Below are positions 5,977 through 61,028 of a DNA stretch of 64,000 nt, piece by piece. Numbering within the stretch: the stretch's first letter is position 1; every line of letters begins with the position of its first letter. The notes under the pieces are model-generated. The model was not told the origin of the DNA, made no database searches, and saw only the letters and a program-made list of their open reading frames with translations. Both the position numbers and the translations under genes were made by a program. The DNA is from Candidatus Yanofskybacteria bacterium RIFCSPHIGHO2_02_FULL_43_17 (GTDB lineage Bacteria > Patescibacteriota > Minisyncoccia > 2-02-FULL-40-12 > GWA2-44-9): positions 27,494 to 91,493 of the forward strand of contig MGJU01000014.1 in assembly GCA_001794435.1 (NCBI GenBank), written 5' to 3'.

Positions 5977-6348
5977 TTAGGCGAAGAAGGATCGGGTAAT
6001 AAGTCCCGCCAATGTCTGCAGTATCACGCCGACACCCAGCACTACCGCCGCTCCGATCACACCGTTCCATATGGTCGATTGGGCCGATTTGACCTTTTCG
6101 TCGTCGCCTCTGGCTGCCATATACATAACTCCTCCCCAAATAATGAATATAACGGCGAGAATAACTGAAACAATTATCAAAAATTGCGCTATTCTTCTTA
6201 TCAATTCCTCAATCTCAAGTAGGGTTATTGCTGAGCCGGTGGTTGGAGGCGTCGGAGTTGGCAAGGTTCCCGCCAATACCAAAACAGGCATCAAAACCGC
6301 TATTATTGCCAACGCGACTAATGTTGTTCTGCTAATATTTTTTTTCAT
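5977..6348 (-). CDS. T4SS pilin-like (VirB2/TrbC-like) small membrane protein, paralog 1
   Basis: N-terminal signal/TM, PT-rich spacer, C-terminal two-helix hairpin module IIWGGVMYMAARGDDEKVKSAQ...GAAVVLGVGVILQT shared with four neighbouring genes. Confidence 0.55.
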   Translation of the reverse strand: MKKNISRTTLVALAIIAVLMPVLVLAGTLPTPTPPTTGSAITLLEIEELIRRIAQFLIIVSVILAVIFIIWGGVMYMAARGDDEKVKSAQSTIWNGVIGAAVVLGVGVILQTLAGLITRSFFA

Positions 6349-6688
6349 TCCTCCACCTCCCTTCCGCGAAATTTGCCCATGAGGAGTTGCTGAAAGCAGC
6401 CGAATAGCTGCAAATTTCAGCGTCCCGCTCTATCTGGAATCGAAGCTGCAGAATAATACTAGTCAAGACGAAGTCGGTAATTTCACAAAGTCCTGACTGG
6501 CCTATTGCTTTGACTCTAGATAGAGCGGGGTTCCTCGTGTTTTTAACTTACCTTCATTATATCAAATACAAATAAATTTGGTAGTAACCCCGCACCAATC
6601 TTATCCGCTGACCGCCATTAAGAAATGAGGCGGGATTGGAGCGGGGTTAAGTGTTTGTCGCCAATCGCTTCGCTCTTGGACAAACAAC

Positions 6689-7099
6689 TTAATAAATACA
6701 CGTTCCTATAATCGGAATCCTTACGGTACAGAAGAAGTCAAGGGTTATTACAGAAGCTATTGTCTGGATAATTACTCCGACACCGAAAATAATCGCCGCA
6801 CCGATAATACCGCTTCTCAGTCGCGCTTGGGCGGCCGTTACTTTGGTCGCATCATCTCCAGCATACATATATGTCACCCCGCTCCAGATGATGAATATCA
6901 CTGTCAACAAAGCGCTAACTGTGATGAAAAATGTGCTGACCCGAAATATTACATAATCCAAAACATCTAGGGTGATCGGATTGCCCGGAAGCAGGCCCTG
7001 ACTGCCGGCTCTGGAACTTGGAACATTTACAACCATCGCCGGCAATACGTAAGCCAGAAAAATGAATAGTGACGAAACTGTCCGTAATATTTTTTTCAT
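6689..7099 (-). CDS. T4SS pilin-like small membrane protein, paralog 2
   Basis: same C-terminal module (IIWSGVTYMYAGDDATKVTAAQ...GAAIIFGVGVIIQT); start taken at MKKILRT. Confidence 0.55.
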   Translation of the reverse strand: MKKILRTVSSLFIFLAYVLPAMVVNVPSSRAGSQGLLPGNPITLDVLDYVIFRVSTFFITVSALLTVIFIIWSGVTYMYAGDDATKVTAAQARLRSGIIGAAIIFGVGVIIQTIASVITLDFFCTVRIPIIGTCIY

Positions 7100-7213
7100 C
7101 CCGTTAGAAATAGTACAAAGCACCAACTACCACCGTGCGGTGCCATATACTATTATTTATTGTTTTATTGATATTAATATGATTCATACCCATTAGGGTT
7201 ATTTCTAACGGGA

Positions 7214-7558
7214 TTATTCGCAGCTCAACGGTATAAATAAAGTATAATCGGCGCCTAAAGAATTGGCAACCGTAGCAATTATAGTATAAGTTCCGAGTAT
7301 AACTAAAACGCCGACCAATCCCCACAAAAACGACTTTCTGGCTTCGGTCACCTTTGTCGGATCACCTTGCGACATCAAAAATTTCACTCCAAAATAAACA
7401 ACCGCCACCACCACCAAAACAAGGGCGACCCTTGTGATCCAGCAGGCAAGACCGGTTATTATTCCTAAAACATCCTGAATAGTTAAATCTATGCCCGGCG
7501 CAGTTCCGGTCACGCCGTATAATAAAGATCGGGAATTTGGAATTTGGAATTTCATCAA
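7214..7558 (-). CDS. T4SS pilin-like small membrane protein, paralog 3
   Basis: same module (VVYFGVKFLMSQGDPTKVTEARK...VGVLVILGTYTIIAT). Confidence 0.55.
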   Translation of the reverse strand: MMKFQIPNSRSLLYGVTGTAPGIDLTIQDVLGIITGLACWITRVALVLVVVAVVYFGVKFLMSQGDPTKVTEARKSFLWGLVGVLVILGTYTIIATVANSLGADYTLFIPLSCE

Positions 7559-7591
7559 GATTTGTTTAGAAATTAGGACTTACAAATTTAC

Positions 7592-8563
7592 TTAGGGCGT
7601 TCCTCCTAAGTTCAATATGCTCTCTATTAAAGTAATGAATCCTTTGCCTATCATTATTATAGCCAACCCCACCACGGCGTACACTAGTATCTGTCTGGCT
7701 TGAGTCACTTTAGCCGTATCGCCTCGAGAGGTCAAAAACATCACTCCCGCATAAACAATCATAGCTACGGCAATGGGAATGGCGAGGTTAAACAACCAAG
7801 TAGCGATGACATTTATCAATTCTATCAGATTATCCGCCAATATGGGATTAGTGATAGAAAAATTAAACGACTGCGTTGCACCAGGAGCTCCACCGCCTCC
7901 GCCACCACCACCGCCTCCGCCGCCACCGCCACCTCCAGGTGCTTGTTGGCCACAAATATTAACATTGATTTGCAAAGGAGTTCTTCCGGCACAAGCCGGA
8001 ACATCAGATAAATTCTGAAAATTCCCCGGACTGCAAGCGTAAGTGCCGTCACCAGCCACACAGGCCCATATCAATTCTCCGGTACCTACCGTAATCCTGA
8101 CCCTGGGAGACTCGATAACATTTGTATTGTAAATATAACCGGTATTTCCACACTCAATCAGCATATAGACATTTGCATCGGGTCCGCTCCAAGCCGGAAG
8201 TCTTGTTGATTGCGTAACCGATGTCTGAATGCTTTGCCCAGTACGCTGAAAACTCTGCGTACCGCTTGTCAAAACTTCGTCTTCTTCATTATTAAGATCC
8301 AGTTTCAAGCTCCAAACATAAGAACTAATATTATTGTCCCCACAATGCCTAGAATATGCGGCCAAATCTATAACACCCCTCATTGAAAAAGTGACCGGAT
8401 TATTTGGATTAACCACAAGAACTGGATTTGCAGTAAAACTACTGACAGTAAATCCGTTGGCGCTGATACCGCCTACAGTTCCAGCAAGAGCTAGATAATC
8501 AGTCGAAGGATTGATTATAACCAGAATAAAAACATAGAAAAATATGGTAATTTTTCTGATCAT
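7592..8563 (-). CDS. secreted Cys-containing domain fused via (Gly)16 tether to a C-terminal T4SS pilin-like module, paralog 4
   Basis: signal peptide, ~200-aa Cys-rich extracellular domain, G16 run, then MIVYAGVMFLTSRGDTAKVTQARQ...module. Confidence 0.55.
   Translation of the reverse strand: MIRKITIFFYVFILVIINPSTDYLALAGTVGGISANGFTVSSFTANPVLVVNPNNPVTFSMRGVIDLAAYSRHCGDNNISSYVWSLKLDLNNEEDEVLTSGTQSFQRTGQSIQTSVTQSTRLPAWSGPDANVYMLIECGNTGYIYNTNVIESPRVRITVGTGELIWACVAGDGTYACSPGNFQNLSDVPACAGRTPLQINVNICGQQAPGGGGGGGGGGGGGGGGAPGATQSFNFSITNPILADNLIELINVIATWLFNLAIPIAVAMIVYAGVMFLTSRGDTAKVTQARQILVYAVVGLAIIMIGKGFITLIESILNLGGTP
7879..7929 (-). repeat. imperfect (CCN)16 triplet tract encoding poly-Gly
   Basis: ccaccgcctccgccaccaccaccgcctccgccgccaccgccacctcc on the plus strand. 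Confidence 0.8.
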
Positions 8564-8622
8564 TTGTGTAATATGTTTTCCTTAAGTATTGGTATTGATG
8601 ATTTTTTATATCTGGACATCTT

Positions 8623-9294
8623 TCAATTTATTATACCTTGATCGAATTTATCGGTAAATTCGTTTTCCTGAATATGTTTTGCTTTTTCCCGTCTTCGCCA
8701 CACATACCACCCGCCAGCCGCCAGTATGGCAATGACCAGAGTAATTAATATTACCACGTTCGCAGATAAAAACCCCTTGTCCAAATTCGGCGGCGGCACA
8801 GGCACAGCACTTCGACAGTCATTAGGGCAAGTTTGTTCACTTTCCCCTCTGTCAGAATTGCACGTCCCGTCATCGTTGCAAAAGGAACTCTCGCTCACAA
8901 AAACTGTCAGAAGTATTTTCCCTTGCGAGTCATAGAAAACCGCTTTCTGGCCGTCAGGCGCATATGGCGCTTTGACCGAAATTTTACCTTTCAAAAAGTC
9001 GGGGTTGCCTCGTTTGGGATCAAACAAAAACTCCGCCGCCACCCCGTTCTTAAGGTTAATTATTTCTCCCTTAAAAGGGAATTGGGTATTGAACGTCTCG
9101 GGAGTGAATTCTTCTGGAATAACATCGTACTTGAACTCAAAATCCCTATCGGCAAACAACTGGCCGTTATCATAATAGAGATGAAAATTGTAAACATAAC
9201 TATCTTCTATCCTAATATCAGCCCAAGCTGGAAGTAAAAAAACAAACACAGCCACTGATACGAAGAAAAATATTTTAGAAACTAAATTAAACAT
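8623..9294 (-). CDS. secreted protein with C-terminal membrane anchor, Cys-rich segment, unknown function
   Basis: signal peptide MFNLVSKIFFFVSVAVFVFLLPAWA, CNDDGTCNSDRGESEQTCPNDC motif, C-terminal TM plus RRREK. Confidence 0.5.
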   Translation of the reverse strand: MFNLVSKIFFFVSVAVFVFLLPAWADIRIEDSYVYNFHLYYDNGQLFADRDFEFKYDVIPEEFTPETFNTQFPFKGEIINLKNGVAAEFLFDPKRGNPDFLKGKISVKAPYAPDGQKAVFYDSQGKILLTVFVSESSFCNDDGTCNSDRGESEQTCPNDCRSAVPVPPPNLDKGFLSANVVILITLVIAILAAGGWYVWRRREKAKHIQENEFTDKFDQGIIN

Positions 9295-11084
9295 TAAAAT
9301 ATGTTGGCATAACAATACTCGACTCTTGGAGCATACCTCCTTGTAAAAGCATAACTCGTCGGTCGGTCGGCATTACAGATATTATGCGAGTTGTTATCCC
9401 AAAGACACTCCCACCTTCTTGTTTCTCTCCCCTGGCCTCCACACACATCGCACCGTCCTCCGTCTGAAGCCGCAGACGGCCCACAGTTAGCACTAACTGA
9501 ACACGCACCAGCTCCTCCATTATATCCCGCCGCCAACTGTCTTGCATCGCAACCACAAGGACCGGCAATAGAATTCCTCAAATAAGTTGCCGCTATGCAG
9601 GCCTGCTCTTCTATTGTATCGCATCGATTGAGCCAGGCAAAATCAATGGTTTCAGTCACACCACATTGACTCTTATACAACGTAGCTACGTCAGGTTTAA
9701 GTTGGAAAAATCCGGCTGACTCCCCGTCTTCAGCAATAATACTACACCTACCCGACGACTCGTTTGCCGCAATGGATTTTAATAATTTTACTGTATCAAT
9801 TCCGCCGCAAACATTTATATTACCCACTCCAGCAATTATGGCTGCACTGTGAGTATTCACGGCAGAGGCAGCACAATTGCCACCCGGGTTAACTGGTGAA
9901 CAACTTAATGTGTCTGGAGCACCCCCAAAAGTACATGTTGATCCGGTACACAAATTACTCGTATTCGTTTGACTTACCACAATGGTAAAGTTCCTCCTCG
10001 AACTTCTTGTAGTTGGAGGTTCTTCTGTAAGCAAGATTTGGAAAGTAATAGTACCGGCCGTAGTGGGTGTGCCGGAAATAACCCCGGTTGAAGAATTCAA
10101 GTTAAGACCGGCCGGCAATGAACCGGAATATACTGCCCAACGATATGGAGGAGTTCCTCCGGTTCCGGTAATAGTTGTGGAGTAAGCTTGGCCGACTGTG
10201 GCGCCCGGAAGAGCGGCTGGAGTGGTGATAGATAAGGTACCCGTGCCGGTTCCCGCTATGACAATGGTAAAGTCTCTTGTTGCCGATTGCTGGGGCGTTG
10301 AGTTGTCGGTGACTCTGACGGTGAAAGTCGCCGTGCCAACAGCAGTAGGAGTTCCGGAGACAACACCAGAGGCAGTATTAAAACTTAAACCAGCAGGTGG
10401 AGAACCAGTCGTTGTCCAAGCATAAGGAGTTGTACCGCCAGAAACTTGAATTGTCTGAGAGTACTGCTGGCCCACCGTGCCGCCCGGAAGGTCGACGGTA
10501 ACAATGGATAACACTGCTCCCGGTGGTGGAATGGTCGATGTCGGAGTAGGAGTCGGTATTGGAGTGACAGGTGGCGGTGTGGCGGGTACTCTCTCAACAC
10601 AAGTGAACTGCCACCAATTGTCAGCATTGTCGTAGTTGGAACCGACGCTTTTTATCAAAGTGTTGGTTATCATCCACGCCGAAAGTATAATTATAATTCC
10701 GTAGAAAGTGTTTGTAAAAATTGTCCTTCCTTGCGCAACTAAGCCAGGATTGGCTCCGCCAAGCAGGATTAAAAAACCGGCCCATACAAAAAGTAAGACG
10801 GCCAGCACAGGCATCAAGGCGCCAACAGTAAAGTCGATAGTGTTTTTTAAAAGCCTAAAAAGATCGCAACGGCCACAGGATTGATAATAAGAATCATCGA
10901 GCACAACTTTGCCATCAGCTATTTCAGCGGGAGTGGGCCTTTCAAGGCCACAAGGCACCAACGGCCAGCCGGGAAGATCAACAGATTGCTGTCCTCCCAA
11001 GGCAAAGCCGGGGAAAAACAGTAAAATAACTAGCGAGATAAGTAGTAAATTCTTTCTTATCATTTTACTCTTTGATTTTTGCAT
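9294..11084 (-). CDS. chimeric surface protein: N-terminal pilin-like module, Pro/Thr linker, He_PIG-type Ig-like repeats, C-terminal lytic-transglycosylase-like (VirB1-like) domain
   Basis: N-terminus carries the LFVWAGFLILLGGANPGLVAQGR module; three repeats of LPxGxxGxxYSxxI..GGTxPYxW; C-terminus has ANESSG..GFFQL and AAGYNGG motifs reminiscent of the SLT catalytic region. Confidence 0.5.
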   Translation of the reverse strand: MQKSKSKMIRKNLLLISLVILLFFPGFALGGQQSVDLPGWPLVPCGLERPTPAEIADGKVVLDDSYYQSCGRCDLFRLLKNTIDFTVGALMPVLAVLLFVWAGFLILLGGANPGLVAQGRTIFTNTFYGIIIILSAWMITNTLIKSVGSNYDNADNWWQFTCVERVPATPPPVTPIPTPTPTSTIPPPGAVLSIVTVDLPGGTVGQQYSQTIQVSGGTTPYAWTTTGSPPAGLSFNTASGVVSGTPTAVGTATFTVRVTDNSTPQQSATRDFTIVIAGTGTGTLSITTPAALPGATVGQAYSTTITGTGGTPPYRWAVYSGSLPAGLNLNSSTGVISGTPTTAGTITFQILLTEEPPTTRSSRRNFTIVVSQTNTSNLCTGSTCTFGGAPDTLSCSPVNPGGNCAASAVNTHSAAIIAGVGNINVCGGIDTVKLLKSIAANESSGRCSIIAEDGESAGFFQLKPDVATLYKSQCGVTETIDFAWLNRCDTIEEQACIAATYLRNSIAGPCGCDARQLAAGYNGGAGACSVSANCGPSAASDGGRCDVCGGQGRETRRWECLWDNNSHNICNADRPTSYAFTRRYAPRVEYCYANIF

Positions 11085-11092: not shown

Positions 11093-12427
11093 TTATCGAC
11101 TGCGTCGCGACCTTGCCATCAACACATTAACTTCCGATTCGGCGTTCTGGATTGCCTCTCTTACTGAAAGCCGACCAAAGTTAATGTCATCTATCATTTC
11201 GGCAAATATGGATTCTATCGCGGAATTGTCTATTTGATACCATGATTTTGCAGTAAGGGCTTGGTTGGCAAAAACACCTAATCGCAAATCGTTCTTCTGA
11301 AGATCTATAATATCGCGTCGCGCCGAAGGCCGCATCGTTTGGGCAAGATAGCTTGATGCTCCCTCTCTGGAAGCAAGGTAGGTCACGAACTTCCAGGCTT
11401 GATTGGAGACTAACGAGTTCTTTGAAACAGCGACGGCCCAATAGTTGGCGTAGTTTTTGATATCGCTCTCGCTTATCTGCGGCATGGACGCAACAGAATA
11501 ATTCAAGCGCGCGGCTTTTTGACTTAAAACTCCGGCCTGATGGGAATAGTTGAACATCATCGCAACTTTTCCGTCAACGAAGGCATCAATTGAATACGGC
11601 TGGGCATTGTTCCACGTATAGGTTCTTATATTGGGATTGGCAAAATCGGTGTAATATCTCAAAGCCACCTCGCCAATGGGAGTGTTGTTTACAGACCTTG
11701 CGAATGTGGCGCTAGTGTTGTTTATATCGGTCATTCTTGCGCCGCTTTGAAGCATAAGGGCCATAAGCACATCTGTTGACCTGTTAATATTTTCTGACGT
11801 GCCCATAGCCGCGCCTGATTGCATGATATTTCCCGAGGCATCGAGTTTGGTGAGTCGCTCGACTGCATTGTTGAATTCATCCCAATTTTTCGGAGGCGAA
11901 GTAATGCCGGCATTATTGAAAAGATCCCTGTTGTAGTAGAGAGCGAGGGTATCGACATATAAAGGCACCCCGTATATCTTGCCGCCGACGATTAAATCCT
12001 GAGTGGCAACTTCAACAAACTGGCTCTGAAAATCCTTTACGGACATCGGCGGACGGTCCAAACCGGAGATTTTCTCCGGAAGAGGCATAAGTTTGTCTAG
12101 ATGTTTTGGCAGCCAAGTCTGATGTATCATCCAAATATCAGGTCCCGTGCCGGCCGCAAGAGCGTTTACCACTTCCCTCTCGTAATCCTCGAATGAGAAT
12201 TGTCTATACACGACCGTAGTGCCAGGATTTTGAGTTTGGAATTCTCTGATAACCTTGTCGAAAACTGTCTTGTCGTCAAAAACGCCCCAGAACTCTACGG
12301 CAACTCTCGGACCAATGCCGCCCCCGCCGACATTGCGCAGGATTAAAATAAGCGTGAGAAAGACAAGTATCGCAATACCCGAAACGAGAATTATCATCAG
12401 TCTCTTGTTGTCTATCTGAATTGGCAA
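11093..12427 (-). CDS. ABC-transporter extracellular solute-binding protein (family 1, sugar-type), orphan
   Basis: N-terminal TM/signal; VEFWGVFDDKTVFDKVIREFQTQNPG...DIWMIHQTWLP pattern; no permease or ATPase nearby. Confidence 0.7.
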   Translation of the reverse strand: MPIQIDNKRLMIILVSGIAILVFLTLILILRNVGGGGIGPRVAVEFWGVFDDKTVFDKVIREFQTQNPGTTVVYRQFSFEDYEREVVNALAAGTGPDIWMIHQTWLPKHLDKLMPLPEKISGLDRPPMSVKDFQSQFVEVATQDLIVGGKIYGVPLYVDTLALYYNRDLFNNAGITSPPKNWDEFNNAVERLTKLDASGNIMQSGAAMGTSENINRSTDVLMALMLQSGARMTDINNTSATFARSVNNTPIGEVALRYYTDFANPNIRTYTWNNAQPYSIDAFVDGKVAMMFNYSHQAGVLSQKAARLNYSVASMPQISESDIKNYANYWAVAVSKNSLVSNQAWKFVTYLASREGASSYLAQTMRPSARRDIIDLQKNDLRLGVFANQALTAKSWYQIDNSAIESIFAEMIDDINFGRLSVREAIQNAESEVNVLMARSRRSR

Positions 12428-19775: not shown

Positions 19776-19967
19776 ACATTTAGAACATTAAATACTACCG
19801 GAGCAGAAAAGAGGCGACTTGAAGCCAATCTAGAAATGTCGAAATTATAGATACATCGATATTTTGGCCCCAAATCCCCTCTTTTCTGCAACCCGCTCCG
19901 TCACGAGCGGCGGAGCCAGGGAGGGGTTCGTCAACGACGTCAACGCCCACTGGGCAAAGGAGGCCAC

Positions 19968-20774
19968 ATGGCCACGAAGAAGGTTCGGAAGATGAAGAAG
20001 GACGAGATCCCGGTCACAGCCGGAGAACTCTCGGACATCGAGAAGCAAGACCTGGCGGCGACAGCGCCCGCCGACGACAAGGGCGACGGCGAAGCGAGCG
20101 ATCGCCTGCCGTACCACACGTTCGAGCCGGAAGTCTTCCAGCGCTGGACCCGACACGAGAACGGCCTCCACTTGGTCCCGAAGTACCGCTGGGACATGGT
20201 CGCACGGCTGAACGGCGGCCCGCTCTCGGTGGCCAACACCGAGCGGATCGTTCGGGTCGACCCGGCGCTGGGTCGGGCGACGTGCGGATTCCTCGGGCAT
20301 GGGAAGGAGTTCGTCGCCTATATGGTGGCGTTCATCCTGAACAAGCCGGGGCAGGAGGGTCAGCTGATGACTCGTGACAAGTACGTCACAACGGACAACC
20401 CCGAGGGGGTTGTCTACATGGGCTGCGTCGTCCGCGTCAAGGACGAGAACAACCACGTGGTTCCTCTCACGTGCTGCCCCGAGCACGTGGAAGCGGCCCA
20501 GAACGCCGTCGAGCTGGCCTCGGCCCGTCGCGACAAGGACGGAAAGATCGTCGAGCGCGGCTTCCGTCCGCCGGCCCAGTCGATGGGCCAAGCCCTCATC
20601 GACATCCAGGCCATTGTGACCAAGGCCGAACAGCGCCGCGACGAGACCCAGAAGGCCGTCGAGGCCTACGGTGGCAAGCGGCGAGAGTTCGGTGGGAGTC
20701 CCCACATGGCAACCAGCGGCCGCCAGGGCCGCGAGCGCGACCCGCGCGAGCGGAGCATCGGGAACCGCGGCTAA
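19968..20774 (+). CDS. hypothetical protein on GC-rich island 2
   Basis: AAAGGAGG RBS then ATG; GC ~62%; Cys/His cluster CGFLGHG...CCPEH; no known domain recognised. Confidence 0.5.
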   Translation: MATKKVRKMKKDEIPVTAGELSDIEKQDLAATAPADDKGDGEASDRLPYHTFEPEVFQRWTRHENGLHLVPKYRWDMVARLNGGPLSVANTERIVRVDPALGRATCGFLGHGKEFVAYMVAFILNKPGQEGQLMTRDKYVTTDNPEGVVYMGCVVRVKDENNHVVPLTCCPEHVEAAQNAVELASARRDKDGKIVERGFRPPAQSMGQALIDIQAIVTKAEQRRDETQKAVEAYGGKRREFGGSPHMATSGRQGRERDPRERSIGNRG

Positions 20775-20794
20775 CCCCGCGTTCCCGAGCACGC

Positions 20795-20850: not shown

Positions 20851-21132
20851 ATTTACCCGAGCGCAACGAAGTGAGCACGGTTGTAAATATTAACCCCGCA
20901 CTAATTTTGCCGACTACTCTGATAAGAATATTGAGCTAAGGACTACTTATTTAACACTCGCAAAGCGCGAGGGCCGAATAGGCCCACCCCTTATGGGCGC
21001 AGCACTTTGCCATAATAAAATCACAAAATTATTGCTGGGGTAATAAGTATTTACTAATGAAATTTTAAAACAAAGATTTTATTAGCTAGTACTTATACAA
21101 TCGGGAAGAGAACGGGAAGGGAAGGAGGCTAA

Positions 21133-22599
21133 GTGAAGACCACGAGGAGTTGGTACCGCCAGCTTGGCGAGTACCGGACGAACAAAGCTGGAAAGAAAAT
21201 TAGAGGCGTCATTGGCACCACGATGCATTTGTTCCGCATTTGCGGAAAGAATATCATCATTGAATGCGGCATCGGCTTTGACAGGAACGGTGAGTTTCAG
21301 GCCCAGTACGTACCCGATGGCAACTGGCTTATCGGAACTCATATTGATTTGATCATCCTCACCCACAAGCACCTGGATCATTCGGGGGCAATTCCCCGTC
21401 TTGTGTGGCATCACCCGGAAGCGCTGGTGTTGATGTCGGCCAAATGTTTTGACGGCACAGTGATAGCCGTTGAAGATTCTTTGAAGATCTGGCGCAACGA
21501 GGCGAATAACGCCGAGCGGAATGGTTTGCCCGTTCCGGAGCCGATCTTCACAGAAGAAATGGCTGAAGCGTTTTTCAATAACCCCAACTTGAGGGTGTTC
21601 AATCCTCCTTACTGGCTTGATCCGCAGGAAGACCTTCGCGGTCAGTGGCCGGGATGGGAAATTGGATTCTACGGTGCCGGTCACGATACCGGCGCAGTAT
21701 CTGTCTACATGATCCGACCGGATGGTAAGTATCTCTATCTGACCGGCGATATTGCCAGCCATGACGGAGAGAACGCCCGCGGTGTTCTTCTGCCGCCTGA
21801 CGACTTCCTTGGCGACTTCTTTGACCGTCCCGGAACGATGGTCACCGAAGCGACCAACGGCGGCCGCCGGATGGAAAAGCCGCGCAGTCAACTGGATGAA
21901 GAGCTCAACCGATTTATCAAGTCGGTTGATGCAAAAGGGGGCATTCTCCTGTGCGCCGAATTCGCGGGCACCAAAAGCGGCAACATGATGGTCAAGCTGA
22001 ATAATCTTGGCTACAAAGTTGTCGTTGACGGACTTGCCCGCCGGCATATCCGGGTTGAGGTTCCGGATGTTGACCAGAGGATCAGGGACGGCCGAGTCGT
22101 GTTCATTGAAGAACGCGACCAAGAGCTCGCGTGGAAACAGCGGGCCGACTACGCCGCCGGCGTTCACGGCTTTGTGTCCATAATCGCCGCGTCGGGTTCT
22201 ATGGATCAGGGCTTTGCCGCATCGGCATACGGGCCCGTGATCCTTGAGGGTGAGAAAAACGCTGTTGTCTTCACAAGCCATATCTTTGATGACTCCACCA
22301 CGCAACGACTGCTCAATATCAAGCGTGGTCGGACGATTAAGATGAAAAAGTTCGTCAACGGACGGCTCGAGCCGATTCGAGTCAATGTCCGTTGTGAAGT
22401 TAGACATTTCGGCTACTCGTCGCATGATTATCAGGACGGGTTAGTCGAGCGAGTCCGGCTCGCAAGACCGGAGGAGACGCTCATTGTCCACCACTGCCCG
22501 GGCAAGGCAACGTTTGACGCCTTTGCCGAACGAGTGAATTCCCTGCCCCCTCCCCCGAAAACAATCTGGGGACTCAATGGCAGAAAGATATTTATTTAA
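21133..22599 (+). CDS. MBL-fold hydrolase, beta-CASP-like putative nuclease (GC-rich island 2)
   Basis: THKHLDHSG HxHxDH motif, later GAGHDTGAV and YSSHD motifs; AGGAGG RBS then GTG start. Confidence 0.6.
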   Translation: MKTTRSWYRQLGEYRTNKAGKKIRGVIGTTMHLFRICGKNIIIECGIGFDRNGEFQAQYVPDGNWLIGTHIDLIILTHKHLDHSGAIPRLVWHHPEALVLMSAKCFDGTVIAVEDSLKIWRNEANNAERNGLPVPEPIFTEEMAEAFFNNPNLRVFNPPYWLDPQEDLRGQWPGWEIGFYGAGHDTGAVSVYMIRPDGKYLYLTGDIASHDGENARGVLLPPDDFLGDFFDRPGTMVTEATNGGRRMEKPRSQLDEELNRFIKSVDAKGGILLCAEFAGTKSGNMMVKLNNLGYKVVVDGLARRHIRVEVPDVDQRIRDGRVVFIEERDQELAWKQRADYAAGVHGFVSIIAASGSMDQGFAASAYGPVILEGEKNAVVFTSHIFDDSTTQRLLNIKRGRTIKMKKFVNGRLEPIRVNVRCEVRHFGYSSHDYQDGLVERVRLARPEETLIVHHCPGKATFDAFAERVNSLPPPPKTIWGLNGRKIFI

Positions 22600-31000: not shown

Positions 31001-32866
31001 TTAGAAAAGATATCTTAAGATTGAAGGGATTGATAAGTGAAGAAAATCTTTATTGGTTTTCATGTTTGCCATTTTCAGATATGTGCGGAAATTGTTGCCA
31101 AATTTAACAGTTCTCGGCAAAGTTGATGCTAAATTTGACGTTGATACAGGTGAAAGCGTAAGATCGCCGGATACATACCAATTGGGATCAAAATTGACAT
31201 CCAGCTCAAAATCCATCAAACGAAATATGAAATCTTGATTAAACGCAGTCCCCTGATTGGCTCCATTTCCAATATTAGGCGAACTATCGTACCCGTTGGC
31301 AGCATACGCCCACGTTCCAGCGCCATCCAACACCAGATCCTGCGCTGTAGGATTGCCTTCAGTGTTATTGTTGTTCCAAATTTTTACATAACTTGTACCA
31401 ACGGCGCCATGTCGCCAGCTCCATTGAAGATTAGACCACTGTCCAACCGGCAAAGAAACGGTTGCGGTATCAGTATAATGATTAATATTTCTTTGCAGTG
31501 TGAAACACACATTGGCAGTATCCGTCCCGCCACAATTTGAACCGCTTTCCAAAAAACCTATGACCCGATTACCGGAACCAGCGCTACCAATATGCCAAAT
31601 GAAAAACTTAAGTTGGCGCCTAGTATCGCCTCCGGGGGCAACACTTATTGGGTTTTCAATATATATTCTCATTCTTCCATAAAAGGGCCCATTAGCTGGC
31701 CAAGAAGAATAAGCAGGTCTTGAATTGCTTTCTATCCAACCGGCGAGTTCTGAATTTTGGCCAGATTGAGACACGTCAAAATCACACCACTTGTATTGAG
31801 TGTATCCTCTATTACTCCAACCGCCGGAATTAAAATGAGTATTTTGCCAATAAACCCCGTTAGCGCATGTGCCTGACGGACGAACCTCTGAAAGGTTTCT
31901 CCATTGGCTGTTGGGGCTCCAATACATCTGATATGGGGTTGATTGAAATGGGATTCTGATTAAAACGTTGGTGCTTGGTGTTGGAGTCGGAGTTGGCGTA
32001 GGTGTCAGAGTAGGAGTCGGTGTTGGAGTAGGCGTTGGAGTCGGGGTAACGCTTGGTGTCGGAGTCGGAGTTGGTGTTGGTGTTGGGGTCGGAGTTGGTG
32101 TCGGCGTTGGAGTGGGTGTGGGTGTCGGTGTAACTCCTCCCCTATCAGAGATAGCCCTTATTTTGAAAAAATCGTATCTTGGGTCATTATCGTTGTCTGC
32201 TGCTCGTCCGCCAATACCAGACTGAATGTGGACCGCGTCATCAAGCCTTGCGGTATTAGTATCGGTAAAAGTTCCGTTGGGTGACCCATTAATACCTATC
32301 CATCCCGGGTCAGAGGGTTTGACGGAACCGTGATTCACAACCCATGCATTTAATACTACGTTAGCTCCTACTGCTCCGGAAGCCGATAATCGCACGGTAT
32401 AAAAATTACCTGATGTCACGGTAACACCGCTTACTATTGCTCCAAGAATCGTTCTTACGCCGGCATTGTAACGCGCGAGTTGGAGAGTCCTTGTAGACGC
32501 TTCAAGATAAACGGCGTAAAAGTCGTTTCTGCCGGCATCTTGAACTCGCACAGCGGTCATTGGGGTACGAGTAGCTGTTGCGGCTCCGGTTATCTGAGCC
32601 TCATGTTCTATGCTGCCGGGATTACTTACAGAATAGCGAAACAATGATGTAAGAGCCGTGTTGCCGTCTAAATCGAGGGTGGTGGCATCCCAAACAGCAG
32701 AGCCGAGGTTTATGGTCCAGCGAGATGGAGAAAATGGATTGGTGTCGAAGTTGTCTGAAGATTCAAAAGCAACGGCAAATTGCGGATTTATTAAAGACAC
32801 TGCGAAAATAGCAACAAAGAACGCTACGACCCTAAGTCTAAAATTAAAATATTTGTTATTTTTCAT
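31001..32866 (-). CDS. large secreted protein with (TP)n linker and jelly-roll/lectin-like domains
   Basis: signal peptide; ~50-residue TPTPTP linker; Trp/Asn/Gly-rich beta-type domains; function unknown. Confidence 0.5.
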
Positions 32867-32993
32867 AAGAGAAAATATACCACAAGAAATTTTAAGCGCC
32901 AAATTTGTTGATGAGGGGCGGGATAACTGTCCTGTTTTTAATAACCAAAACCCCGCACGGAGGCACTGTCGGGGTTCGGATAAAATTGTCTAT

Positions 32994-35831
32994 TTATTGT
33001 ATGGCATCCCCCTCCGTCCACGAATCCAGCTCCGTCTGATTTACGGGAGAAACATGTTGCCAGTTGTAACCATTGCGGTCAAAAGCTTCTTTGGTTTGGA
33101 TCCAATGTCGTCGGTTGTTTTGTATAAGATAGACCCTGGAATCCCCCGATACTCGGATAAGAGTGTTGTCGTCGATAAGAGATAGCTCAGACGGTTCAAC
33201 TTCTACAACATCGCTGAATCTGTTGCCGTAGGACAGGAATACATCTGCAGTCGGTATCCAGCGTTTTAATCCTGTTTCTGTTATGTAGTATACTTTCGTG
33301 TCTCCTCTGGCCCTGAGAAGGTTTGCGCGTGAATAGTTACGCTCTTCCGAGTTGGAACGCTTTTCGATCTTGGTCCAATCCAGGTTAAGAGAATTAAAGA
33401 TGCTGGGGTTGGTAATCCATTTTATTTTTTCTCCGATGACTATGTATACCTTGGGGCTGCCTTCAAAGGTAACAACCTTGGGTTTAGGTGTGGGTGTGGG
33501 TTTGGGAGTAGGTGACGGATGTGGACACCAACCTTCGGCTGGTTCAGGAGGAAGACATCTGGGACCGGAAATGGCATCGAGACAAGCCGGGCGAACTACA
33601 CAAGTGGGTGTGGGTGTGCGAGTTGGTGTGGGCGTCGGAGTCGGTGTAGGCGTACGAGTTGGCGTAGGTGTCACGGTTGGCGTCGGAGTAGGCGTGCGGG
33701 TTGGTGTGGGCGTAGGCGTCGGAGTAGGAGTCGGAGTCCTGGATGGCGTGGGTGTTGGAGTTGGAGTCGGCGTCGGCGTAGGAGTCGGGGTTGGTGTAGG
33801 GGTTGGTGTGGTCGTGCCAGTTCCAATATATGAGGTGCTGATTTTAACATCGTCATAGTAGATGTCTTGATTATGCGAGGGAACGCCTTCGGTCAAATAA
33901 TCCGAAATCATCGCAAAGTTGGTGCCTTTAGTGAAATCATCGCCATAAGTTCCGTTCCAAGGCACACGCCATCTGATGTTACTGTAATCCGCCACCTGCT
34001 GACCGTTAATCCACATCTGGAAAATTCCATTATCCTGACTTGGATCATTTAATCTGCGGCGAGCTTCAATCGTATACCATTGACCAGATTGCACTCTGTA
34101 TGGGTTGGCGGTCCTATTATATCCCGCCAAATTCGGACCTACCCAAAACCACTGACCGCTAGCCGCTTGTTTATTATTGCCTTCTGCTCCAAAGTTACCG
34201 TCATAACTTTGAACTATCAAATAATGCGAAACCCACGGATTACAGCAAGGACTGTCATGTCTTCTTGAGTCTTGGGTGCCGATAATGAATTGTTTCGGGT
34301 TAGCATTAAAATCAAATCCCGGGGAATAATATACTTTCCATTGAACATAGACGTCATTATAGCGGTTACCCTGTCCGGAACTCCAGACTGGGCCGGCGAT
34401 TGAATCGCCGAAATGCTGGGTACCAAAACTTGTCTGATCACCGGTCTGACCCGCGGTTAACGCATGCCTTAGAGCATAATTACCACTATTACGAACAGTG
34501 GTCTGGACAGTGAATTGATTACTGCTTTGAAGACTACCCTGACTGGCACTATTAAACGACCCTGCCTTGCTACCTGATTCCCAGCCTTCGTTGAAGAAAA
34601 TACCCGCTCCGGGTGTGGGCGTAGGAGTCAGCGTCGGTGTAGGAGTAGGAGTCGGTGTCAATTGAGTCCTGAATGTCTGATTAGCAGAAGTGGCTAGATT
34701 GTTTGACGCATCTCTTGATCTGACCCTGTATGTATAGAGGGTGTTGGGAAGAAGGGTGGATACATTGATAGAATGGGAGGTTCTGGTTCCGGCTACTAGC
34801 GGTGTAAGACAATTAGTAGTTCCCGGGCAGACGCCATTCATGAATTCTACTTGAGAATTTGCTCCTTCGTTGGTGGTCCAGTTAATAGTGGCGCTGTATT
34901 GGCCAAGATTAGTTACATTGATGCCTGAGATGACTGGAGGAGTTGTGTCGGGTGTTGGAGTAGGCGTCGGTGTAGGAGTCGGGGTTGGTGTTGGCGTTGG
35001 TGTTGGTGTGGGGGTTGGTGTGGGGGTTGGAGTGCTACCCGTTACAAACCCTGCCGGAGGGTTTGGCCTTGTCTGCGTTACCATGATACGGCCAATGTCA
35101 ATATATGCACCTGCCGAACCCCCGGAAGTCTGTTCAATATAGGCGAGTAATCGCGCGACATCCCATGTTGTGCTCCATGACCTGGTATCACTATTTGAGA
35201 TATGACCTGCGATGGATCCGTCCTGGCTGTAAATCCATAATTCCGTATGGTCGTTCACAAGTCCCATAATCACATAATACCATTGGTTGTGTCCGCCGGG
35301 CGCCTCCTGATATCGGTGATTACTACCTAAACTATTTTGGTTGTTACCAAATTCATCGCGACATCCATCTCCGTTGGCATTTGTACAAGTTAAGAAAGTG
35401 CGATGCCCCACTGCCTGCCAGTTAAAAATAGTCGGCCGAAATGGCACGCCTCCCCCGGCATCAGTAACAGGGTAAAACATTGCAAACTTGAATTCACCGC
35501 CTACATGAGAGCTAGTCCATGTGGGGCCTACCCGCATGATAAATGATGTGTATATGCTGTTGGTTCCAGTATTCGGGTGATTGAGCGAATATCCGTCGTC
35601 ATCCTCACCCTGAGATACTGTGGTCCATCTGTAGTAACCTTCAGAACCGTTCCAAGATCCATCAGTGCGCCACTGACGCGTAAAATGAGGGTTGTTTGTG
35701 CCAGGGATCTGCGCATCGTGTTGGGCTTGAGTAGAGACAAGTTCTCCCCATCCAATGGCCATAGCCGTTGTCGGAAATATTACGATGCTTATTGCAAAAA
35801 CAAGTCCTGTCAAAAAATTGCGGTATTTCAT
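32994..35831 (-). CDS. giant secreted multidomain protein (FN3-like domain, concanavalin-like domain, several PT linkers, C-terminal duplicated KVYxI..WI motif)
   Basis: signal peptide [25 protein letters not shown]; FN3-like block [14 protein letters not shown]...YTYRVRSRD; four PT/TPTP linkers. Confidence 0.5.
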
Positions 35832-36148
35832 ATGTTTAATATTAGTAGTTAAAAATAAATACGAGTAATAATTTCCAGCAACAACTATCTTGCCCTGCCT
35901 AGAGCGCAATAATCATGTTGCCGAAATTTTTACCTCTATTTATATAAATTATACGCAACTTAATTATACACAATTACGATACGGAGCAACAATGGTCAAA
36001 AAACCGATAGATATCCACAACCCGTACCAAGGAACACGCGGGCTTTGCGGGCGGCGGCAGAGCACTTGTCTGCCGATAGGTAGGGCTTTCTCGGTTCAAA
36101 AATTTTTGATAAGGTATGTCCTAGCTAAGCTGTAAGCATACTGCGACC

Positions 36149-48980: not shown

Positions 48981-51029
48981 ATGAGCAAAAAACGAAAACT
49001 ATCCAAGATAGCCCGAGCATTACCTATGCTTTTTTTGTGGCTGATCGTGGTCGGAATTATATCGTTTTTAGTCCTGTTCATATACATAGAATTGACTCTC
49101 CCGGCTCCCGAATCAATAGCCGTACGCAAGATCACTGAATCAACCAAGATATACGATAAGACCGGCGAGATTCTGCTTTACGATATTCACGGTGAAGAAA
49201 AAAGAACCATCATCCCATGGGACCAGATACCTGAATCGGCCAAGGAAGCAACTCTCGCTTCCGAAGATGCTGAATTCTATGACCACAAAGGACTTGATCT
49301 CAGGGGTATCGCGAGAGCACTTCTAAAAGATCTGCGAGATTTTGATCTGTCTCAAGGCGGCTCTACAATAACTCAGCAACTGGTCAAAAAAACACTCTTG
49401 GGTGACGAGAAAACGATCACCAGGAAACTAAAGGAAGCACTTTTATCTATAGAGGTCGAGAAAAGATACACCAAGGGTGAGATACTCTGGATGTATTTGA
49501 ACCAAATCCCCTACGGTTCTAACGCTTACGGTATAGAAGCTGCTTCAAAAACATTCTTTGGCAAAACCGCATCAGCATTGACTGTAAATGAGGCTGCGAT
49601 ACTTGCTTCCCTTATCAAAGCCCCCTCATACTACTCCCCTTATGGCAACCATGTCGATGAGTTGGCGGTAAGAAAGAACTCTCTTCTTGAGCGGATGGCG
49701 GCTTTGAATTTTATAACACCGGAAGAGTATGAGGAAGCTGTCAACGAAAAACTTGTATTCGGGTCTAATGTTGAGAAAATCCAGGCTCCCCACTTCGTGA
49801 TTATGGTCAAAGAATATCTTGAGAACAAATATGGACGAGGTGCGGTTGAAAGTGGGGGTCTGAAAGTTATAACCACCCTTGACGCCGAACTTCAGACCCT
49901 AGCAGAAGAAACGGTCAGTAAGTACGCCGAGATAAACAAAGAAAGATATAAAGCATCCAATGCCGCCCTTATTGCAATCGACCCAAAGACCGGAGAGATA
50001 CTGTCTCTCGTCGGTTCTGTCGATTATTTTGATATCGAAAATGAGGGCAACTTCAATGTTGCAACCGCAAAAAGACAGCCGGGTTCGGCTTTCAAACCAT
50101 TTGCTTATGCCGCTGCTTTCCAAAAAGGATATCCCGACTTTACTGTTTTGTTTGATGTGAAAACCGAGTTCAATCCGAATTGTTCCCCGGATACAGAGCA
50201 AGAGAAAGATCAGTACGGTCTTGATTGCTACCATCCAAGAAACTACGACGGAAGATTTAGGGGTCCTGTCACAATGAGACAAGCGCTTGCTCAATCACTA
50301 AACGTGCCTTCGGTTAAGACATTATATTTAGCCGGTGTGAACGACACTCTGGATCTCGCCGAAAAAATGGGCATCACCACACTTCAGGATCGGTCAAGGT
50401 TCGGATTATCTCTCGTACTTGGCGGAGCAGAAGTCAGATTGATTGATCTCGTTTCAGCATATAGCGTTTTTGCCAATGATGGCATAAGAAATCCCTGGCA
50501 TTTCATAAAAGGAGTTGAGTCGGCAGACGGAATGGTCTTGGAAAATAACGCTCCGGACCCGAAAAGAGTGCTCGATTCTCAAATAGCGAGACTTGTTTCG
50601 GACGTTATGTCGGACAACAGTGCTAGAGCGCCGGTATTCGGCTATTCAAGCTCTCTTTATTTTCCAGGCAAATCAGTTGCAGCCAAAACAGGAACCACTC
50701 AAGAAAACAGAGATGCCTGGGTTATTGGTTACAGCCCAACAGTAGCAATCGGGGTTTGGGTTGGAAACAACAGACAAGAGTCAATGACACAGGAAGGGGC
50801 CGGCATAAGCGCTGCTGGTCCTATGTGGCATGAATTTATGGCAAAAGCCGTTGAAAAGCTCCCGAGAGAAGAGTTCGTTAAGCCCGACTTGGTCTCCTCT
50901 TCCAAACCGATGCTTAATGGAATTTACGACGGTTCCGACCCTCACAATATACTTTATTACGTTGATGGGAACAGTGATCAGTTTAAGAACTGGGAGTGGT
51001 CAGTGCGCAGGTTTTTTGGACTAAATTAA
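48981..51029 (+). CDS. class A penicillin-binding protein (glycosyltransferase plus transpeptidase)
   Basis: N-terminal TM; GT51 motifs EDAEFYDHKG, GGSTITQQLVK; transpeptidase SAFKPF (SxxK), KTGT. Confidence 0.9.
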   Translation: MSKKRKLSKIARALPMLFLWLIVVGIISFLVLFIYIELTLPAPESIAVRKITESTKIYDKTGEILLYDIHGEEKRTIIPWDQIPESAKEATLASEDAEFYDHKGLDLRGIARALLKDLRDFDLSQGGSTITQQLVKKTLLGDEKTITRKLKEALLSIEVEKRYTKGEILWMYLNQIPYGSNAYGIEAASKTFFGKTASALTVNEAAILASLIKAPSYYSPYGNHVDELAVRKNSLLERMAALNFITPEEYEEAVNEKLVFGSNVEKIQAPHFVIMVKEYLENKYGRGAVESGGLKVITTLDAELQTLAEETVSKYAEINKERYKASNAALIAIDPKTGEILSLVGSVDYFDIENEGNFNVATAKRQPGSAFKPFAYAAAFQKGYPDFTVLFDVKTEFNPNCSPDTEQEKDQYGLDCYHPRNYDGRFRGPVTMRQALAQSLNVPSVKTLYLAGVNDTLDLAEKMGITTLQDRSRFGLSLVLGGAEVRLIDLVSAYSVFANDGIRNPWHFIKGVESADGMVLENNAPDPKRVLDSQIARLVSDVMSDNSARAPVFGYSSSLYFPGKSVAAKTGTTQENRDAWVIGYSPTVAIGVWVGNNRQESMTQEGAGISAAGPMWHEFMAKAVEKLPREEFVKPDLVSSSKPMLNGIYDGSDPHNILYYVDGNSDQFKNWEWSVRRFFGLN

Positions 51030-52813: not shown

Positions 52814-54187
52814 CTACTTTTCAAAAGAATTATAAACACGTTCTCTAATAAGAACCAACTCCTGTTTTAACGGCTCATCAACCGATAATTCGGACTTTAT
52901 TTTTTCGCAAGCATGAATAACAGTTGAATGATCTCTTCCTCCCAATTTCTGGCCTATCTCTGGAAAAGATAATTTTGTTTCCTCCCTCAATAAGAACATA
53001 GCGATCTGACGAGGTTTAACAACTTCTTTCTTGCGACTTCTTTTGATAAGGTCACTACCTGAAATACTGTAAAAATCCGCTACCGCTTTAAGTATCGACT
53101 GCGGGGACGTCTTTCTATAAGGACTGCTTAGGTAAGTGTTTAAGATATTCTTAACTTCTTTTATATCAGGTATCCTGTTATAGATTTGACTGAAAGCGCC
53201 GACTCGGTTCAAAGCGCCTTCTAATTCCCTCACATTATTCTGTATATGAGTAGCGATGTAAGTAAGGGTTTCTTCGTCAAAATCATAATTTTTTTCGTTA
53301 CTTTTCTGCTTAAGTATAGCCAGACGTGTCTCAAAATCAGGAATACCTATGTCCGCTATCATACCGCCTTCAAAGCGCGATCTCAGACGTTCTTCCAAAG
53401 CCGGGATTGCTTGTGGCGGCCTGTCTGAAGAAAGGACTATTTGTTTATTTCTTCCGTAAAGTTCATTAAATGTCGAGAATATTATATCTTGGGTCTTTTC
53501 TTTGCCGGCTATGAATTGGATGTCGTCGATCATTAGCAGATCCAGCTGGGAATATTTGGATTTGAGGTCTTCTATTGTTCTATGAACAAGTGCCTCCAAA
53601 ATACTTGCCGTAAACCTTTCAGCCGATATATAGAGGATACTTTTTGGATTACCCTCTATCAAGAGCTTATTTCCCATCGCCTGAAGGAGGTGGGTTTTAC
53701 CTAATCCTACTCCGCCATAGAGAAACAAGGGGTTATAAAGCTTGCCCAAGCTCTTCGTTACAGCCAAACACGCCGCATGGGCCAACTCGTTATTCGATCC
53801 GACAATGAACGACTCAAAAGTATATTTTTTGTTTAAGTTGGTGGCTTTGTCTACGTCTTTATCCACTTCAATATTGGACCTGGACTCGAGTTCCCTTTCC
53901 AGTATGACGTTGGAAAAATCATGTTTCGCCAGCTCTATTTTAGGACGGCCTATGGTGTAGCGGATCTCTCTTATTTCCGGACTCTGGTTTCTAATTGACT
54001 CAAGGATTTTTTTATTAAACTTGTTTTCGAGCCATTCTTTAATAAAGCCGTTAGGCACACTAACTATCACCGCGTTCTTGTCTTTTGACAAAACAGAGGT
54101 GTTTTTAAACCAAGTAGTGAAATTGGCCCGCGTAAGGGACAGTTCCATTTCTCCAAGCACCGCTTTCCAAAGCTCCTCATTAGTCAT
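52814..54187 (-). CDS. dnaA: chromosomal replication initiator DnaA
   Basis: AAA+ Walker A GGVGLGKTHLL, DDIQF box, C-terminal DNA-binding helix. Confidence 0.95.
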   Translation of the reverse strand: MTNEELWKAVLGEMELSLTRANFTTWFKNTSVLSKDKNAVIVSVPNGFIKEWLENKFNKKILESIRNQSPEIREIRYTIGRPKIELAKHDFSNVILERELESRSNIEVDKDVDKATNLNKKYTFESFIVGSNNELAHAACLAVTKSLGKLYNPLFLYGGVGLGKTHLLQAMGNKLLIEGNPKSILYISAERFTASILEALVHRTIEDLKSKYSQLDLLMIDDIQFIAGKEKTQDIIFSTFNELYGRNKQIVLSSDRPPQAIPALEERLRSRFEGGMIADIGIPDFETRLAILKQKSNEKNYDFDEETLTYIATHIQNNVRELEGALNRVGAFSQIYNRIPDIKEVKNILNTYLSSPYRKTSPQSILKAVADFYSISGSDLIKRSRKKEVVKPRQIAMFLLREETKLSFPEIGQKLGGRDHSTVIHACEKIKSELSVDEPLKQELVLIRERVYNSFEK

Positions 54188-55493: not shown

Positions 55494-56198
55494 TTGTTTA
55501 ATCTCTACAACGAAATCCTATATCGACCCCTATTCAATGCTATGGTCTATCTCCAGGGCATAATTCCTGGTGGCGATTTGGGGCTGACTATTATTATCCT
55601 AACCGTAGTGATAAGGGCGTTGTTTGCGCCTCTCTCTTTGAAAACCATCAAATCTCAGCGATCACTCAGAGAGTTAGCTCCCAAGATCGATGAGGTAAAA
55701 GCGAAATTAAAGAATGACACCGCCGCTCAATCAGCCGCAATACTGAAACTTTATAAAGAAAACAACGTCAACCCTCTGGCCGGATGCTTGCCTCTTTTGG
55801 TACAGATACCGATATTGATAGCCTTGTACCAAGTCTTTATAAAGGGAATAACTCCGGAAAGCTTAACCCTCCTTTACAGCTTCATTTCCACGCCGGAGCT
55901 TACTGACCACAATTTTCTGGGCTTGCTTGATGTTACTAAAAACAACAGGCTCCTTACGATTATTGCCGGAGGGCTTCAGTTTATTCAGTCCAAGCAGGCG
56001 GCGGCTTTACAGGGCGATAGCGGGTCTCCGCCAGCTGGTGGAAAAGAACTGGCGGCTATCAGCAAGCAAATGTTGTATTTTTTCCCCGTTATGATTATAA
56101 TTATTGGTTGGAATTTGCCGGCCGGCCTTATCCTTTATTGGGTAACGACAACGGTTTTTTCAATGTTTGAGCAGTATTTCATTAAGACAAAGAAATAA
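55494..56198 (+). CDS. yidC: membrane protein insertase YidC (short form)
   Basis: five TM helices; C-terminal LILYWVTTTVFSMFEQY pattern. Confidence 0.85.
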   Translation: MFNLYNEILYRPLFNAMVYLQGIIPGGDLGLTIIILTVVIRALFAPLSLKTIKSQRSLRELAPKIDEVKAKLKNDTAAQSAAILKLYKENNVNPLAGCLPLLVQIPILIALYQVFIKGITPESLTLLYSFISTPELTDHNFLGLLDVTKNNRLLTIIAGGLQFIQSKQAAALQGDSGSPPAGGKELAAISKQMLYFFPVMIIIIGWNLPAGLILYWVTTTVFSMFEQYFIKTKK

Positions 56199-58516: not shown

Positions 58517-58517
58517 A

Positions 58518-61009: not shown

Positions 61010-61028
61010 TGTTGTAAGCTAAAGGTTT

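Follow-up and report, generated by a model that had tools for sequence, protein, structure and literature searches.

A pilin hairpin joined to a predicted lytic transglycosylase domain: a Patescibacteria protein family encoded at the head of pilin arrays

In a 64,000-nt stretch of DNA from Candidatus Yanofskybacteria bacterium RIFCSPHIGHO2_02_FULL_43_17, an ultrasmall bacterium from groundwater (assembly GCA_001794435.1, contig MGJU01000014.1, positions 27,494-91,493; this whole stretch is called the window below, and coordinates refer to it), we followed up a gene whose product combines a signal peptide, a VirB2-like pilin module, a linker, two immunoglobulin (Ig)-like repeats and a Cys-rich domain of the lytic transglycosylase (SLT) type in one polypeptide (Table 1), hereafter the pilin-SLT protein. 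Its form of 596 amino acids (aa) is deposited for Candidatus Yanofskybacteria as OGN02626.1 (NCBI) and A0A1F8GHR8 (UniRef), the latter under the automatic name "Transglycosylase SLT domain-containing protein"; public gene calls use either the ATG start given in the table or Met8 (11063). The SLT label thus is already known from databases, but neither the fusion to a pilin nor the leading position of the gene in a pilin array is described in the literature which we searched, including PMC12102498 with its supplements, PMC10633639 and a 2025 review on type IV secretion systems (T4SSs).

Table 1. Location of the pilin-SLT gene, the parts of its product, and the accompanying genes in the window
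Feature	Coordinates	Strand	Details
Solute-binding protein gene	11093..12427	-	membrane-anchored by a transmembrane segment; Pfam SBP_bac_1 1.6e-32; 8 nt upstream of the pilin-SLT gene
Pilin-SLT fusion gene	9294..11084	-	596 aa, ATG start; from the list of open reading frames
Signal peptide, aa 1-30	10995..11084	-	ends FALG/G; hydropathy peak at aa 15-24 and A-x-G cleavage-type motif, from sequence
VirB2-like pilin module, aa 31-165	10590..10994	-	Pfam T4SS_pilin and hydropathy
Pro/Thr-rich linker, aa 166-189	10518..10589	-	VPATPPPVTPIPTPTPTSTIPPPG; read from the translation
Two He_PIG Ig-like repeats (stalk), ~aa 190-277 and 283-368	9981..10517	-	Pfam He_PIG
Cys-rich family-1 lytic transglycosylase (SLT/GH23-like) domain, aa 378-596	9297..9953	-	predicted catalytic residue E442
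Conserved partner gene, 230 aa	8623..9315	-	start overlaps the pilin-SLT stop; signal peptide, ectodomain, Cys motif, C-terminal transmembrane helix
Cargo-pilin, 323 aa	7592-8563	-	T4SS_pilin hairpin at the C-terminus
Small pilin 1	7214-7558	-	Pfam T4SS_pilin
Small pilin 2	6689-7126	-	Pfam T4SS_pilin
Small pilin 3	5977-6348	-	Pfam T4SS_pilin
Class A penicillin-binding protein	48981-51029		
VirB4-like ATPase	59261-61009	-	NCBIfam VirB4 CD1110 family, 355.7 bits (cutoff 325); Pfam P-loop_TraG/AAA_10
TrsD-like protein	61029-61646	-	TrsD 8.4e-6

The C-terminal domain of the pilin-SLT protein comprises 219 aa with 18 cysteines and carries the motifs ANES (E442-S443), GFFQL (G458...Q461) and AAGYNGG (518-524), in which the original prediction, made from the letters of the DNA alone, had seen the signatures of a lytic transglycosylase. 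Against Pfam SLT (PF01464) the window protein alone reaches 17.2 bits (E 0.0039), below the cutoff of 21.3, and the assignment therefore needs the profile of the family together with evidence from the fold. A word-indexed search with aa 375-596 returned 13 relatives, a number which profile iteration raised to 34; they are mostly of 343-387 aa and with the precomputed domains PF18895 and PF01464; homologs of this domain reach E 1e-99. The profile of 13 sequences found MltE in the PDB only at a borderline E of 0.006; that of 32 sequences matched the PDB sequences of MltE/EmtA (6.9e-5), MltC (8.7e-5) and Slt70 (2.7e-4), placing E442 at the catalytic ESGG motif of these enzymes. An AlphaFold model of aa 378-596, built with the 32-sequence alignment, is confident (predicted local distance difference test, pLDDT, 94.5; predicted template modelling score 0.91) and places E442-S443 at the C-terminal end of helix 54-66 (domain numbering); when this model was compared with the PDB by Foldseek, the top 36 matches all were family-1 lytic transglycosylases, followed by g-type lysozyme. 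Across 165 family proteins, the motifs are close to invariant (E442 in 155/157, S443 in 151/157, G458 in 158/158, Q461 in 149/161; within AAGYNGG, A519 in 160/165, Y521 in 157/165 and N522 in 149/165), and 12-13 Cys columns of the domain are at least 87% conserved. Two further cysteines, C447 and C488, occur in the window protein only (1/157 and 1/160 family sequences), and these probably form an extra, lineage-specific disulfide next to Glu442.

In fold and motifs, the C-terminal domain is a family-1 SLT domain of goose-lysozyme-like, alpha-helical fold, as had been supposed, and the observations on domains and motifs lie far beyond chance. The case which the original prediction had named as refuting it, a domain lacking a lysozyme-like fold or the catalytic Glu, does not apply. 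It is predicted to be an SLT/GH23-type enzyme cleaving glycan strands, with Cys-rich decorations specific to the family, and might be a lytic transglycosylase or a muramidase, two activities which sequence does not separate. An NCBIfam scan of the whole protein assigned no family and gave no match in the SLT region, and Pfam detected no second hydrolase domain. A recent phage origin is unsupported: the viral library BFVD gave generic phage lytic transglycosylases and lysins, which are no closer than the bacterial ones.

The gene itself is genuine. At least six contigs encode the identical protein (called from Met8); those three that we inspected stem from different samples (JGI 3300002502, ENA ERZ4903055 and JGI 3300025323) and carry the same neighbouring genes; more than 100 homologs show the same combination of pilin and SLT domains. 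A misassembly of the open reading frame can therefore be excluded, and with it the mis-joining of separate reading frames that the original prediction had named as one way of being refuted.

The N-terminal part agrees with what had been read from the translation, namely a signal peptide, a pilin hairpin and a Pro/Thr linker. The signal peptide reads MQKSKSKMIRKNLLLISLVILLFFPGFALG and is followed by G; hydrophobic segments lie at about aa 10-30, 85-112 and 122-147 (hydropathy window centres at about aa 15-24, 90-108 and 130-139), the latter two being the transmembrane helices TM1 and TM2 of the pilin module. In the module, an N-terminal segment with C45, C70 and C73 leads to TM1, the loop GGANPGLVAQGR, TM2 and WWQFTC162, so that conserved cysteines stand on either side of the hairpin; the pattern LVPCG...CxxCD...C is conserved in the homologs. 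Pfam T4SS_pilin (PF18895) matches aa 87-143 with 33.2 bits (cutoff 26.6), and TrbC (PF04956) weakly with 13.7 bits. A single-sequence AlphaFold model of the full protein, which is of low confidence (pLDDT 44) and unusable for the C-terminal domain, contains two long helices at 65-111 and 113-161. By profile and predicted topology, the module belongs to the VirB2/TrbC-type T4SS_pilin proteins. A small pilin has about 70-130 aa and consists of little beyond the hairpin, whereas the pilin-SLT protein continues for some 430 aa after it and exceeds every canonical pilin by far in size; furthermore, the hairpin loop reads GGxNP...G(K/R) in the pilin-SLT family and GDxxKVxxA in small pilins, and judged from such sequence features the module is a subfamily distinct from the small pilins.

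Between linker and enzyme, the original prediction had counted three Ig repeats of ~85 aa, whereas Pfam He_PIG (PF05345; E 2.2e-28, 99 bits, above threshold) covers two stretches, which are 52% identical to each other and leave no space for another. The same region is the only one of the protein that matched in a phmmer search against the PDB, where it resembles the cadherin-like stem modules of the Staphylococcus aureus adhesin SraP (PDB 4m03, E 1.3e-4; the SraP structures are 4m00-4m03). In SraP these tandem modules serve as a rigid stem from which a functional head projects, and because of this match we read the He_PIG domains, by analogy, as a likely spacer. The analogy has its limits: the head of the pilin-SLT protein is an enzyme and not a lectin, and its anchor is a pilin hairpin and not an LPXTG motif.

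The original prediction had viewed the protein as a chimera. It is not a singular case but a long-stalk member of a sizeable family restricted to one phylum, whose members are already annotated automatically as SLT-domain proteins. An exhaustive HMMER scan of 1.84 billion cluster representatives yielded 302 proteins of 84-1128 aa at E <= 1e-3, of which 104 reach E <= 1e-30. When 105 members were scanned with Pfam, SLT was found in 96 (E <= 1e-3), T4SS_pilin (PF18895) in 67, He_PIG in 21, and fn3 and Pur_ac_phosph_N (PAP_N, of Ig-like fold) in 9 each. All 29 matches in contigs from a one-genome-per-species set of GTDB belong to Patescibacteria (Yanofsky-, Doudna-, Taylor- and Lloydbacteria, Paceibacterota, Minisyncoccia, and metagenome-assembled genomes labelled Saccharibacteria). 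The anchor always is a pilin hairpin, never a simple transmembrane helix or a lipobox. What varies is the distance from hairpin to enzyme, with a median of 49 aa and a range of about 0-570 aa: at most 60 aa in 58 of the 105 representatives, 61-150 aa in 21, 151-300 aa in 16 (the window protein, with 213 aa, is one of them) and more than 300 aa, with the maximum of 570, in 10. Most homologs have a short PT/Gly linker only, long spacers consist of Ig-like modules of the He_PIG, fn3 and PAP_N types, and some members carry Ig domains after the enzyme or a large cargo before the hairpin.

For the gene neighbourhood we considered 29 species loci, of which 25 are informative, having at least 2.5 kb of sequence downstream. 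In 19 of these 25, the pilin-SLT gene heads a row of genes on the same strand and is followed by two to seven pilin genes recognised with hidden Markov models built here; in the remaining six it stands without a downstream array. Array pilins upstream of it occur in no locus except L031, where there is one. In the window, the co-directional array lies beyond the 230-aa partner gene (5977..8563, minus strand), and the same order recurs in related loci. Homologs of the partner follow immediately 3' of the pilin-SLT gene in 16 of the 29 loci (E 1e-83 to 1e-22), and the encoded protein may work together with the enzyme or regulate it. Besides a beta-rich ectodomain, it has the motif CNDDGxCNxDxGExxxxCPxDC, a stretch rich in Pro, a transmembrane helix at the C-terminus and a basic tail; a 12-sequence profile of it found nothing credible in Pfam or among PDB sequences.

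The first pilin gene of the array encodes a mirror image of the pilin-SLT layout: in this cargo-pilin, an N-terminal domain of ~225 aa without known family and a run of 16 glycines precede the hairpin, and in the loci L005, L018, L028 and L030 the corresponding place in the array is taken by homologs of this N-terminal domain. The three small pilins (5977-7558) show a weak match to the NCBIfam family Mbov_0395, a pilin-like conjugal transfer protein (the best score, 30.2 bits, stays under the cutoff), which at the level of sequence hints at a connection between candidate phyla radiation (CPR) pilins and pilin-like proteins of integrative and conjugative elements in a wall-less monoderm (Mycoplasma). 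On its other side, the pilin-SLT gene is directly preceded by the solute-binding protein (SBP) gene in 18 loci. The SBP gene possibly is co-transcribed with it, its membership in the system is uncertain, and no permease gene adjoins it. In locus L019, SBP and pilin-SLT share one stop-free frame (8051-10426), which is either a fusion or a sequencing error.

A T4SS core is encoded elsewhere in the window: the VirB4 and TrsD genes lie near yidC and dnaA, and this placement matches the published origin-proximal monoderm (MPF-FATA-like) T4SS of Patescibacteria. The class A penicillin-binding protein gene (48981-51029) shows that peptidoglycan is made by the organism. The stretches 52814-54187 and 55494-56198 are listed with this region (59261-61646), and the open reading frames 57452-59210 and 62056-63957 beside VirB4 had no informative matches. 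Apart from TrsD and VirB4 in L031, no homologs of the genes neighbouring VirB4 in the window were found near the family loci. Elsewhere in the window, between 20001 and 22000, the GC content rises to 0.573, compared with about 0.44 elsewhere, there is no Rfam match, and long open reading frames occupy both strands (minus strand 19845-20792 and 21082-22425; plus strand 19968-20774 and 21133-22599, the last being a metallo-beta-lactamase/RMMBL, RNase J-like gene). At 31001-35909 (minus strand), two large secreted proteins adjoin, one of 633 aa without a Pfam match and one of 971 aa with weak matches to polysaccharide lyase 14 and the fn3-like purple acid phosphatase N domain; both are likely surface proteins.

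Several known systems invite comparison. In classical T4SSs, the peptidoglycan-cutting VirB1 is a separate protein; its gene stands immediately before virB2 in the virB operon, and VirB1* furthers the formation of the T-pilus. The pilin-SLT protein resembles the VirB1 type (Agrobacterium VirB1, pKM101 TraL, R1 P19) in its family-1 SLT domain with catalytic Glu, in being encoded just ahead of VirB2-type pilin genes and in a presumed opening of peptidoglycan for the assembly of the apparatus. VirB1, however, is a soluble periplasmic protein, whereas the domain described here is fused to a hairpin and an Ig-like stalk, contains about 18 Cys and belongs to a monoderm Patescibacterium; the two are likened by domain and gene position, not by orthology. 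The epithet "VirB1-like" of the original prediction thus holds for an SLT domain heading a VirB2-like pilin operon and does not extend to descent.

The T4SS hydrolases of Gram-positive bacteria (PrgK of pCF10, TraG of pIP501, TcpG, CD419/TrsG) likewise are membrane-tethered SLT-type enzymes of monoderms, serving there to bring a T4SS through the wall, and Patescibacteria have a T4SS core of MPF-FATA-like type (PMC12102498), with the VirB4 of the window belonging to the CD1110 family. Those hydrolases, in contrast, have a single N-terminal transmembrane helix and usually an added CHAP/NlpC-P60 or LytM domain, whereas the pilin-SLT protein has a two-helix hairpin and heads a pilin array rather than adjoining virB4. 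It would work like VirB1, PrgK or TraG without necessarily being an ortholog of them and, as far as sequence can tell, falls outside the architectural definitions of both types. With E. coli MltE/EmtA, MltC and Slt70 it has the motif set ES...GLMQ...AYNxG in common. Identity to them is 17-18%, the CPR domain has ~45 additional N-terminal residues and a Cys-knitted C-terminal segment of ~70 residues, and the E. coli proteins, which are lipoproteins or soluble, serve as housekeeping enzymes in a diderm. The nearest published arrays are those of Southlakia epibionticum ML1 (region SEML1_0006-0019) and Nanosynbacter lyticus TM7x, which also consist of tandem, divergent PF18895 genes with a T4SS core near dnaA; their members, however, are treated as plain pilins, and no SLT-bearing pilin is mentioned in the papers and supplements searched. 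More generally, Patescibacteria possess arrays of 2-11 VirB2 genes and a monoderm MPF-FATA-like T4SS near the origin of replication (PMC12102498).

The reading which we favour, and to which we give about even chances, is that the pilin-SLT protein is a pilin-tethered, VirB1-equivalent opener of the producer's own wall for the assembly of pilins and the T4SS. Export by Sec and cleavage of the signal peptide would leave a two-helix hairpin in the membrane with both ends outside. We infer this topology because a signal peptide and a two-helix hairpin are found as in VirB2/TrbC, because conserved Cys residues flank the hairpin on both sides, and because the neighbouring cargo-pilin bears its cargo at the opposite, N-terminal end. 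With both ends outside, the C-terminal extension, consisting of the Pro/Thr linker, two rigid Ig-like domains and the disulfide-rich SLT domain, should project outward from the membrane into the wall space; the conserved Cys columns of the SLT domain also argue for a location outside. Glu442 of the Glu-Ser motif would then cleave the glycan strands of peptidoglycan between N-acetylmuramic acid and N-acetylglucosamine (MurNAc-GlcNAc) and could open a local gap in the producer's wall where pilins are inserted and assembled. This would be the job of VirB1, with the wall-opening activity coupled physically to a pilin paralog instead of residing in a separate protein.

A VirB1-equivalent role is favoured by the position of the gene at the lead of a pilin operon, as virB1 precedes virB2, and by the general use, in monoderm T4SSs, of SLT enzymes tethered to the membrane (for example PrgK and TraG). 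The link to the pilin system is suggested by the array position in most informative loci and by the presence of VirB4 (CD1110 family) and TrsD in the window. Since the tether is short in most members, the enzyme would be kept beside the producer's membrane, which argues for a role at the own wall. Most VirB2-bearing genomes of Patescibacteria lack a recognisable VirB1 (PMC12102498), which likewise favours a VirB1-equivalent role. A cultured relative among the Yanofskybacteria parasitises an archaeon without murein (PMC10936435), and since this is the only documented host of the lineage, an own-wall target is weakly favoured there.

Several observations weigh against this reading. The window protein by itself scores under the threshold of Pfam SLT, and in six loci no pilin array follows the gene. 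In the window, ~48 kb separate VirB4 from the pilin-SLT gene, and only one of the 29 loci (L031) has the two within 10 kb of each other. The wider block of gyrA, methyltransferase, SBP, array and VanW is syntenic in related genomes, so that the gene order is partly inherited and to that extent no independent evidence. Finally, spacers of more than 150 aa in 26 of the 105 representatives (up to 570 aa), together with domains placed after SLT, fit a reach past the own wall.

Such a reach is at the core of a host-directed role, the main rival, which we consider possible though rather unlikely: the pilin module would co-polymerise with, or cap, a VirB2-like pilus and display the stalked SLT domain, which would digest host peptidoglycan at the site of contact, either breaching the wall for T4SS delivery or releasing wall fragments or cytoplasmic nutrients, perhaps caught by the SBP encoded upstream. 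In VirB2-type pilins, as seen in the structures of the F and T pilus, both termini lie on the exterior, and geometry therefore permits a C-terminal cargo; stalks vary greatly and can be very long, the disulfide-rich enzyme domain probably is robust outside the cell, and the SBP gene is kept upstream in 18 loci. Reviews also propose that lytic transglycosylases of Patescibacteria attack host envelopes (PMC11665869), and T4SS and VirB2-like pilins are essential for the epibiotic growth of the Saccharibacterium S. epibionticum (PMC10633639; PMC12102498). Yet the linker is short in most members, and a cargo of ~45 kDa per subunit would be hard to pack, so that the protein could at most be a minor subunit or one at the tip. 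The loop of the pilin module sets it apart from the small pilins, no permease genes stand beside the SBP gene, and the sole documented host of Yanofskybacteria has no murein to digest. The boldest form, in which the fusion truly polymerises into, or sits at the tip of, a muramidase-armed VirB2 pilus drilling the host wall, while SBP and the 230-aa partner capture fragments or control the enzyme, has in our view only a slight chance of being correct.

Improbable, but not negligible, is an ordinary autolysin for which the hairpin is merely an anchor taken from an abundant paralog family, acting in general wall turnover, growth or division, as membrane-bound lytic transglycosylases do in other bacteria, without any special tie to pilus or T4SS. 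The gene belongs to a vertically conserved chromosomal block and not to a mobile element, a cell which encodes a class A penicillin-binding protein makes peptidoglycan, the nearest solved structures are the housekeeping enzymes MltE, MltC and Slt70, and there are the six loci without an adjacent array. A mere anchor, however, fits poorly with a gene that is consistently the first of its pilin array, with a conserved partner gene set between it and the pilins, and with an anchor that is a pilin hairpin throughout the family. That the whole fusion is an artefact of assembly, or its SLT-like region a non-catalytic, sugar-binding remnant, is scarcely credible and already largely refuted: a sequence derived from metagenomes may be chimeric, and the score of the window protein alone against Pfam SLT may raise suspicion, but the identical gene recurs in different samples, more than 100 homologs have the same architecture, the catalytic Glu as well as the GxxQ and AxYNGG motifs are conserved, and the predicted model has the SLT fold with confidence.

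Patescibacteria account for a large part of the diversity of bacteria, and in the only species tested genetically, the T4SS and VirB2-like pilins are needed for growth on hosts. A pilin paralog equipped with its own lytic transglycosylase domain and leading a pilin operon is a concrete candidate for the VirB1 activity not recognised in most pilin-bearing genomes of these bacteria, in which the VirB2 hairpin seems to serve as a scaffold for cargo domains at either end. The segment aa 378-596 with E442 offers a defined, soluble and assayable domain for probing the T4SS of Patescibacteria; should the enzyme prove to be borne on a pilus and aimed at the host, it would represent a new delivery route for a wall-degrading activity.

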